Sequence record: NZ_CP028351.1
DNA from: a plasmid
DNA length: 64,000 nucleotides
Strand: one strand, 5' to 3'
The notes under the pieces were generated by a model that ran no database searches, was not told the DNA's origin, and saw nothing but the letters and a program-made list of their open reading frames with translations. Below, piece after piece: positions 32,030 to 33,956 of the stretch; position 1 is the stretch's first letter; each line of letters starts with the position of its first letter. The translations under genes were made by a program, and so were the position numbers.

Positions 32030-33067
32030 TCAGCCGGGAATATCGGGTTCCGCATATTGTTCCATGAACTCCACCATAGCGCCTTTATGCGCATCCACAT
32101 GACGGATATAACGCATTAGTGTCTCCGGTTTTTTCCAGGTGCCTTCCTGCATGATGCGGGCGACAGGATAGCCTTTATCTGCCATATCCTGAGCTGCGCC
32201 CACCCTGGCACTGTGGCCACTCCAGCCGGTATAGCGATTCTTGTTAGCCTTTATTGCACTGCCTTTTCCAGCCGTTCGCCAGGCTCGATTAAAAATCTGT
32301 TCCAGTGCCCGGGTACTCATCGGTTTTTCTGTAATCAGCACCCGGCCTGAGCGGTGTACTGCATTGAACAGCCAGGCATCAGGCTGACTGGAAAGGCCGG
32401 ACGCCTCGATCCACTCTTCAAGTCGCCGGGTTGAATGAGCGCTGAGCGCCTTGATCAATCCGCCAGTCTGCACAAGGGTTTTTGTCCACGCCACATCCAG
32501 AATGATACGACCATCACCGGCACGCATCACATCACGCACCCGCAACCGTGACAGTTCACTGATACGCAGTAGCGTTGCATAGGCGACATGCAAAAAAGCC
32601 AGATCACGAAGCACCTGGAGATTGTCAGAACCTGACCACTGTTTATCCAGCACCATCAGGTCTGTCAGCCTGAAGGGCACGGCCTGGCCTGCACGCTCGC
32701 CATTCACAACGGCAACCCGGTTAATCTTCTTCATGGTACGGAAAACCAGCGGAGAACCATTCGGCACAGGCAAGCCGGCGTTACGGTGTAACATCGAAAT
32801 CAACGCTGCATGGGACGTGACGGTCGAAGAAGCCCGTCCGCTTTCAGCCAGAAAAGAGAGATAGTCACGCAAATCCTCTGCGCTCATCGGCAGAAAAGTA
32901 CGCTGGTTATCTTCTGACCACTGATTGCAGATTCGCATGACGCTAAGCAGCTGTCGCCAGGTATTGGGGGAAAAGGCCTCTTTGTCCTGGACGAACTGTC
33001 TGAGCCGTTCGGTGATATCACTGTTCCGGTTCACCGTCAGACGGGTTAACGGCACTATCTCACTCAT
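32030..33067 (-). CDS. Cre-like tyrosine site-specific recombinase
   Basis: 345 aa, alignable end to end with P1 Cre from memory: AFSPNTWRQLLSV vs AFSEHTWKMLLSV; VNGERAGQAVPF vs DAGERAKQALAF; DLAFLHVAYATLLRISELSRLRVRD vs NLAFLGIAYNTLLRIAEIARIRVKD; WTKTLVQTGG vs RTKTLVSTAG; STRALEQIF vs STRALEGIF; GWSGHSARVGAAQDMA vs AWSGHSARVGAARDMA; KGAMVEFME vs TGAMVRLLE. The catalytic R..K..H..R..W..Y pattern fits. About 45-50% identity by eye. Confidence 0.9.
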   Translation of the reverse strand: MSEIVPLTRLTVNRNSDITERLRQFVQDKEAFSPNTWRQLLSVMRICNQWSEDNQRTFLPMSAEDLRDYLSFLAESGRASSTVTSHAALISMLHRNAGLPVPNGSPLVFRTMKKINRVAVVNGERAGQAVPFRLTDLMVLDKQWSGSDNLQVLRDLAFLHVAYATLLRISELSRLRVRDVMRAGDGRIILDVAWTKTLVQTGGLIKALSAHSTRRLEEWIEASGLSSQPDAWLFNAVHRSGRVLITEKPMSTRALEQIFNRAWRTAGKGSAIKANKNRYTGWSGHSARVGAAQDMADKGYPVARIMQEGTWKKPETLMRYIRHVDAHKGAMVEFMEQYAEPDIPG

Positions 33068-33103
33068 CTTTGCTCGCTTATTAATCAGAAAACGCGATGA
33101 TCG

Positions 33104-33160
33104 CGCTACGTGAATTCTGAGAATTCAGCAGGGGGATTACCGGTCAGAATTTACGTAGCG
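33104..33160. repeat. 17-bp inverted repeat (1 mismatch) with a 23-bp spacer in the Cre-like gene promoter / 5' region
   Basis: CGCTACGTGAATTCTGA (33104-33120) and its reverse complement TCAGAATTTACGTAGCG (33144-33160) flank GAATTCAGCAGGGGGATTACCGG. They lie 37-93 bp upstream of the recombinase ATG. Confidence 0.5.
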
Positions 33161-33221
33161 TTGCCATTTTGCAGCCTTACCTTTGCTGCCCATTATCATA
33201 ACCCGTCAATTTTCCTGTGTC

Positions 33222-33255
33222 ATGACTTCGTATAAGAACAATTATACGAAGTTAT
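33222..33255. other. 34-bp lox-type recombination site: loxP-like 13-bp inverted arms around a novel 8-bp spacer
   Basis: ATGACTTCGTATA-AGAACAAT-TATACGAAGTTAT. The right arm is identical to the loxP arm. The left arm differs from ATAACTTCGTATA at one position (A3G). The spacer differs from loxP ATGTATGC / GCATACAT. It sits 155 bp upstream of the Cre-like gene, as loxP sits upstream of cre in P1. Confidence 0.8.
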
Positions 33256-33956
33256 AATTCCATAGCCTTTCTGCAAGATTTTTGCCAACCGGTCTGGCGC
33301 AGAATCGTGTGGAGTAGGGTGTCATCCTGACCACGCATTTACCGGTTGCGTTAGCATAAGGACACAGGCTGTGCAGAGCATGAGATTTGAACCAGACGTC
33401 TGAATAACCCTTCTCAACTTCAGCTTAATAAAATTACTCACTTAAATAATGGCAATAGTGAATTGAATTGATAAGACGATTTTCAATGGCTCATAAATAA
33501 TCGAACACGAAGCTCGCCTGAAAATAAGCCAGAAAAGATCCCAAATGATATTCACGTTCCGGACGACCATGACCATTATTTATCGTTAGCCTGTAAGTTG
33601 AGCAGATTTTCCCACCATTATCTTTATTGTCACGAACTGATAACCCCACATTCCTACTACCAAAAAGTGTTCTGAAAGCATTTGTCAGAATAAAAAACTA
33701 AATATCAATATTTTAAAGATTTAAATATCACCCGGCAATGACAAGCCGCTATCCTGCACTCCTGAATATGGGAAGCAGTGACACCCTTTTATCCGCTTTT
33801 AATCAAAATAAGACGGACAGTTAATGAACTGACCGAAGCAGATTAATAATGAATAAGATGATATTGGGGTCATTGAGAACTAATCAATTATGCGCATTTT
33901 TATGCCGGCGTCTGAAGTAACACCGGCATTCATCAGGGTAAAAAGAGGATTTTTTC

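Follow-up and report, generated by a model that had tools for sequence, protein, structure and literature searches.

Why should a Cre-type recombinase gene and a site with loxP-type arms lie side by side next to feoB in plasmid record NZ_CP028351.1? We addressed this question in a 64,000-nucleotide (nt) stretch of that record (the window), where the pair occupies positions 32,030 to 33,255. A sequence-only reading, made before any database search, had described it as a chromosomal Cre/lox-like module and as the remnant of a P1-like phage or plasmid. Comparison with related replicons, chiefly pPag1 of Pantoea vagans C9-1 (167,983 base pairs [bp]), revealed instead a Cre-type module that is real, intact, and conserved and that belongs to a native Pantoea plasmid. 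We assign a probability of roughly 70% to the interpretation that it is a native component of a large low-copy plasmid of the pPag1 family, which would serve multimer resolution and whose own promoter is likely repressed by the recombinase.

The recombinase gene (32030..33067, minus strand), taken from the list of open reading frames, encodes a protein of 345 amino acids (aa). In a phmmer search of all PDB chains, the only matches of this protein were Cre and engineered Cre variants (E=1e-76), with an alignment that spans residues 10-336 of the recombinase and 14-340 of Cre, covering both the N-terminal and the catalytic domains. Global alignment with P1 Cre yielded 143 identities, i.e., 40.7% of 351 columns or 41.7% of the Cre length, and 56-58% similarity, and tblastn comparison with P1-type plasmids returned 42-43% identity. 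The six catalytic residues are intact, with R173, K201, H289, R292, W315, and Y324 of Cre corresponding to R168, K196, H285, R288, W311, and Y320, respectively. In helix J, the alignment also shows T258, R259, and E262 of Cre to be kept, R253 being the counterpart of Cre R259. The sequence-only reading was therefore right in calling the protein a full-length Cre homolog with conserved catalytic residues, and its estimate of 45-50% identity was slightly too high; the aligned values are 41-42% to P1 Cre and ∼46% to the Pantoea enzyme Panto, whose sequence was machine-read from a supplement. The protein is 98.6% identical to WP_041456348 of pPag1, which is annotated there as a "tyrosine-type recombinase/integrase". 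NCBIfam returned only weak, sub-threshold XerC/XerD matches and no dedicated family model for it.

The lox-type recombination site (34 bp; 33222..33255, no strand assigned), delimited by sequence comparison and inverted-repeat search, lies 154 nt upstream of the recombinase ATG. It is made up of a gene-proximal arm, ATGACTTCGTATA (33222-33234), that matches the loxP arm at 12/13 positions, an asymmetric 8-bp spacer, AGAACAAT (33235-33242), and a distal arm, TATACGAAGTTAT (33243-33255), with a 13/13 match. Both arms together thus equal loxP at 25 of 26 positions, and the spacer has 3 of its 8 bases in common with the loxP spacer read in the same orientation. These features confirm the earlier description of loxP arms around a different asymmetric spacer. 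No further loxP-arm match with up to 2 mismatches occurs anywhere in the 64-kilobase (kb) window, where matches with 3 mismatches were no commoner than in shuffled sequence. The second copy of the site that the sequence-only reading had proposed to look for was found neither in the window nor in the 164.9 of 168 kb of pPag1 that were searched, the last 3.4 kb of pPag1 and the chromosome lying outside this search. Among 49 plasmids, the site was present at one place per record.

The recombinase gene is likely transcribed from a promoter that overlaps this site. The best sigma-70-like promoter in a consensus scan (33195..33223, minus strand) has 10/12 matches; it is a promoter whose -35 hexamer (ATGACA, 33223-33218) takes in the last 2 nt of the proximal arm and whose -10 hexamer (TATGAT, 33200-33195) lies 17 nt beyond the -35. 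The arrangement recurs in homologous upstream regions; of 73 distinct regions, 65 have a best promoter-like match whose -35 begins 1 to 7 nt within the proximal arm, and in 64 of them it begins 1 to 4 nt within. Because the predicted promoter overlaps the gene-proximal arm, the bound recombinase probably occludes its own promoter, which would result in autoregulation. From this predicted promoter toward the start codon, the inverted-repeat search retrieved a 57-bp repeat with inverted arms (33104..33160, no strand assigned), hereafter I1, which is presumed to be an operator or regulatory element.

The module belongs to a widespread family. The recombinase gene is carried by more than 100 Pantoea plasmids, and 289 relatives with E<1e-30 were found in the protein database in Pantoea, Erwinia, Mixta, Rahnella, Kalamiella, and other genera, mostly on contigs of 0.1-0.7 Mb and in few cases on contigs of chromosomal size. 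Scanning genome contigs with the single protein retrieved only 8 close relatives, and a metagenome scan with an alignment as the query yielded the wider sample; the family sample analyzed here comprises 93 related loci. Gene, promoter, I1, and lox-type site recur together across this Erwiniaceae/Yersiniaceae family, and a 13-8-13 site precedes the start codon by 144-234 nt in nearly all loci with sufficient upstream sequence (n=93). A chance palindrome is thus ruled out, since a site of the same type precedes the homologous gene at the same distance in nearly all of these loci.

Arm sequences within the family differ by small steps. Relatives at least 84% identical to the window protein have the proximal arm ATGACTTCGTATA, itself one base from loxP, or a version 1 base off, and a spacer that reads ATTGTTCT towards the gene or a near variant thereof. 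The ACTTCGTATA core is restricted to the clade with 75% identity or more to the window protein; at 61-71% identity, the arms of relatives are ACTTCATATA, ACTTTATATA, ACTTTACATA, or GGACTTATATA. Two further arms of the family, CTAACTTCGTATA and ATAACTTCATATA, likewise differ from loxP at one base. In the distal arm, it is the outer 2-4 bases that vary among relatives, the perfect loxP distal arm of the window being one such variant. As the arms vary stepwise across relatives, the loxP match represents one state in a family of arms that differ by single steps, and not a unique retention.

Variation in the sites is mirrored in the proteins. Wherever position 8 of the proximal arm is C, the protein has R as the counterpart of Cre R259 (64/64); where that position is T or A, the counterpart is P (16/16), i.e., co-variation is perfect across 80/80 site-protein pairs. 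Experiments on Cre point the same way: R259 faces positions 8-10, the three bases that separate loxP from rox and pox, and R259P combined with K43R and G263K converts Cre from loxP to rox (PMC4957104). The T258, R259, and E262 equivalents kept in the window protein thus account for its loxP-type arms. On these grounds, namely the position of the site ahead of the gene in nearly all 93 loci and the Cre-259 residue that tracks arm position 8, the 34-bp sequence appears to be the cognate target of the adjacent recombinase. With one residue (R or P at Cre 259) changing in step with one arm base, the family provides a natural series. Between CG and CA arms (positions 8-9), differences also tend to be seen at the residues aligned to Cre 263 and 90.

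The surroundings of the module are those of a plasmid, not of a chromosome as had been stated. The 2.1 kb around it are 97.1% identical over their full length to pPag1, identity is 99.0% and 98.5% for the window's first and last 25 kb, respectively, and the window is thus colinear with pPag1 at 97-99% over all parts compared. Gene order is the same in both, with a YgiW-family gene, feoA, feoB, the recombinase gene, an SgcJ/EcaC gene, two SfnB genes, and an LLM oxidoreductase gene; the neighborhood consists of feoAB, stress-protein, sulfur-acquisition, and transporter genes. The position after feoB, which the sequence-only reading had given correctly, is shared by related plasmids. Comparison of the locus with related genomes, as that reading had advised, placed the module between feoAB and the SgcJ/EcaC gene also in plasmids of the same replicon type (rep_cluster_807), namely those of P. 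agglomerans FL1 and P. alfalfae CQ10 (p2). In other plasmid families, the module has a RelBE or YoeB/YefM toxin-antitoxin pair as its neighbor.

How would such a module serve its plasmid? In the mechanism that we favor, two recombinase monomers would bind the 13-bp arms of the single lox-type site upstream of their own gene. Upon fusion of two plasmid copies by homologous recombination, the resulting dimer would carry two directly repeated sites, which would be synapsed and exchanged within the asymmetric 8-bp spacer to restore monomers. Restoration of monomers would let partition work, as Cre/loxP does for the P1 plasmid prophage, while recombinase bound to the proximal arm would repress its own transcription, with I1 presumably adding further control of the gene. 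What the analysis shows is homology, intact catalytic residues, a conserved site present once per plasmid, the plasmid location, and protein-site co-variation, from which we infer catalysis on the site, dimer resolution, and autoregulation. Natural roles of P1 Cre/loxP include dimer resolution of the plasmid prophage. Multimer resolution is the function suggested for the window module because there is one site per plasmid, the module resides on plasmids, it adjoins maintenance genes in other replicons, and its enzyme is homologous to P1 Cre. pPag1 itself carries parA/parB and toxin-antitoxin genes. If this interpretation holds, Cre/lox-type systems would be routine maintenance modules of large plant-associated Pantoea plasmids.

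The coexistence of two modules in one strain is also compatible with multimer resolution. P. alfalfae CQ10 harbors one on each of two plasmids, p2 and p5, whose arms (ATGACTTCGTATA and CTGGACTTATATA, respectively) and spacers differ, and whose recombinases are 60% identical and differ in the residue aligned to Cre 259. This pair fits replicon-specific and mutually nonreactive, i.e., naturally orthogonal, systems in one cell. Several observations weigh against multimer resolution as the function. In pPag1, the module is ∼50 kb from the par/rep region and does not adjoin it. In many relatives, the distal arm is degenerate at its outer 2-4 bases. Nor is plasmid location obligatory, as some homologs of the same architecture reside on chromosome-sized contigs, e.g., P. 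alhagi CP019706 (4.24 Mb). Finally, the resolution role is extrapolated from P1 Cre and from the pattern of one site per plasmid. The P. alhagi CP019706 homolog is ∼70% identical, shows the same layout of site, promoter, and I1, and has only its one site in a region that extends 8 kb to either side.

As the main alternative, a module of this kind could recombine mainly between replicons, mediating fusion with other lox-bearing plasmids, circles, or the chromosome and thereby exchanging the DNA beyond the site; it would then act as an integration or gene-capture device and not as a resolvase. Capture of foreign segments by the functionally analogous rfsF-ResD has been proposed in a study of IncR plasmids (PMC9412624), and homologs of the window module have been found not only in at least four replicon types but also on chromosome-sized contigs. 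Sequence boundaries at the site also point in this direction, since blastn homology to P. agglomerans plasmids ends there and similarity among nine related loci begins abruptly in the outer bases of the distal arm. The intergenic DNA beyond that arm (33256-33950; guanine-plus-cytosine [GC] content, 0.37-0.40) cannot be aligned among most relatives, and it falls into a few unrelated sequence families among nine loci. However, the flanks are syntenic in the examined P. agglomerans, P. alfalfae, and P. vagans plasmids, with feoAB on one side and SgcJ/EcaC on the other; because gene order is the same on both sides, we read the unalignable stretch as an AT-rich intergenic spacer and not as swapped cargo. 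Fusion is further disfavored by the different arms and spacers of co-resident plasmids and by the single site, with no second copy or pair of half-sites in the window or in the searched part of pPag1. We thus regard an inter-replicon device as improbable.

Much less probable still is the origin suggested by the sequence-only reading, a P1-like phage-plasmid that would have integrated or recombined at the locus and since decayed to a remnant. Cre and Dre are indeed encoded by the phages P1 and D6, and intermediate relatives at 45-48% identity reside in phage-plasmids, with a terminase gene or a D6-like gene set as neighbor; true phage-plasmid relatives have terminase or c1 genes nearby. In pPag1, however, the annotation shows no phage genes over 20 kb to either side of the module, and the only match in a phage database was 48 nt long, to the dre gene of phage D6. 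The GC content of the recombinase gene (0.52-0.55) equals that of the adjoining genes, and the module keeps its syntenic position in related plasmids. Decay is also contradicted by the intact state of open reading frame, site, promoter, and I1, all of which are maintained by selection across more than 100 plasmids and 93 loci. Moreover, the clade is 41-47% identical to the phage enzymes and is therefore an old sister lineage of these rather than a recent remnant. A Cre/loxP cloning vector or an assembly artifact, which arms equal to loxP at 13/13 and 12/13 positions might evoke, is barely conceivable. Vector contamination was rejected on the basis of the mere 41-42% identity of the protein to Cre, the spacer unlike that of loxP, and the native context; an independent complete plasmid matches the surrounding sequence colinearly over 64 kb, and the locus recurs in many independent assemblies and metagenomes.

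The module can be set beside several described systems. It resembles P1 Cre/loxP in the two-domain fold deduced from sequence, in its catalytic and helix-J residues, and in a 13-8-13 site upstream of the gene. The two differ in protein sequence, in the spacer, in the distance from site to ATG (154 nt in the window versus 419 nt in a P1-type plasmid), and in the host replicon, which is a metabolic megaplasmid in one case and a phage in the other. Panto/pox from Pantoea sp. aB, characterized by Karimova et al. in 2016 (PMC4957104), is likewise a Pantoea Cre-type enzyme, ∼41% identical to Cre, with a 34-bp site near its gene, which it recombines unaided by accessory proteins. However, Panto is nearer to the D6/Dre branch, its pox arms (GAAACTTTAAATA) are rox-like, and its residue aligned to Cre 259 is P. 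Closer in layout is a recombinase of Rahnella pRAHAQ02, a member of the same Erwiniaceae/Yersiniaceae plasmid family, which is 64-69% identical to the window protein, shares the same arrangement of site, promoter, I1, and gene, and adjoins a toxin-antitoxin pair; it differs in arms (CTAACWTTATATA), spacer (ATGGGACT), and the residue aligned to Cre 259, which is P. This enzyme and its site were listed only as a predicted candidate pair in Supplementary Figure 1 of Karimova et al. 2016 (PMC4957104). ResD/rfsF of plasmid F and ResD of IncL/M plasmids are also plasmid tyrosine recombinases for multimer resolution, encoded among ccdAB/parAB maintenance genes. These proteins are shorter (242-268 aa) and use another type of site, and IncL/M ResD has no detectable similarity to the window recombinase (blastp E=1.3).

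The closest comparison concerns YR4/lox4. Jelicic et al. predicted ∼500 pairs of Cre-type enzymes and sites in 2023 and validated eight of them (PMC10250229). Among these, YR4 is 42% identical and 58% similar to Cre, and the lox4 half-sites are one nucleotide from loxP, contrary to the earlier statement that known Cre relatives use sites with diverged arms. In E. coli and in human cells, YR4 acts efficiently on its predicted site and needs no added factors, and YR4 and Cre are each also able to recombine the site of the other (PMC10250229). The window protein (41-42% identity and 56-58% similarity to Cre) and its arm ATGACTTCGTATA, one base from loxP, match these summary figures, so that the recombinase possibly belongs to the already tested YR4 lineage.

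Because its arms match those of loxP, Cre probably acts on the plasmid site and the plasmid enzyme probably acts on loxP, i.e., the pair would be cross-reactive, not orthogonal. Only the spacer keeps loxP and the plasmid site from recombining together. Of the use as an orthogonal or cross-reactive recombinase envisaged from the sequence alone, the cross-reactive half is thus the probable one and the orthogonal half is not borne out. The value for genome engineering is small, as Cre-cross-reactive enzymes with near-loxP arms have already been characterized (PMC10250229); the value for biology is modest but real. This lox-type site is also carried by pPagL15_2 (NZ_CP034150.1, 179.6 kb) of P. agglomerans L15, the strain used in a study of P1 infection of Pantoea, where resident lox-like sites and cross-talk with P1 Cre are not discussed (PMC10999674).

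Two features of the module, the arm-overlapping promoter and I1, are undescribed in the searched literature; queries with the arm sequence and I1 strings returned only unrelated primers. I1 consists of 17-nt arms (CGCTACGT-RAAWTCTG(A)) that are 23 nt apart, and it ends 37 nt upstream of the ATG. It is kept in relatives down to 60% protein identity, although the lox arms change, and was not seen upstream of P1-type or D6-type recombinase genes. The predicted fold of I1 is stable (-34 kcal/mol, z=-3.1) and, when the repeat is counted as a helix, 89% of cells pair in 47 sequences. A structured RNA was nonetheless rejected, given that covariation in the same 47 sequences equaled that of a shuffled control, one pair is mismatched in 34/46, and Rfam has no match. 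Since there is neither covariation beyond the control nor a match in Rfam, I1 behaves as conserved DNA with two inverted half-sites and not as an RNA helix. A role as a frequent operator elsewhere in the window was discarded as well; the two I1 arms are the only exact matches of the motif in the 64 kb, and looser matches occur at the level expected by chance.

Outside the family, parts of I1 accompany other plasmid resolvase genes. Its 3' half (CCCCCTGC-N8-TCAGAATTCACGTAGCG) has a 33-nt counterpart with 91% identity where resD begins in ∼380 IncL/M-type (pOXA-48-type) plasmids (blastn), in which resD adjoins parAB. A complete I1-like repeat occurs in an IncF plasmid without a recombinase gene beside it, and no I1 match within 3 substitutions was found near resD of plasmid F. 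I1 and its partial recurrence at IncL/M resD are the only part of the module without a place in existing knowledge. One could speculate, with low confidence, that I1 is an undescribed operator for plasmid resolvase genes, through which a common factor links unrelated families to one signal. If so, a host protein or the recombinases themselves would be the common factor that binds I1 and the resD leader. I1 is directly followed, still ahead of the start codon, by a small GC hairpin and a T-run (AGCGCGATCATCGCGTT TTCTG; 33091-33107, minus strand), an element that includes a GATC site and is restricted to the closest relatives.

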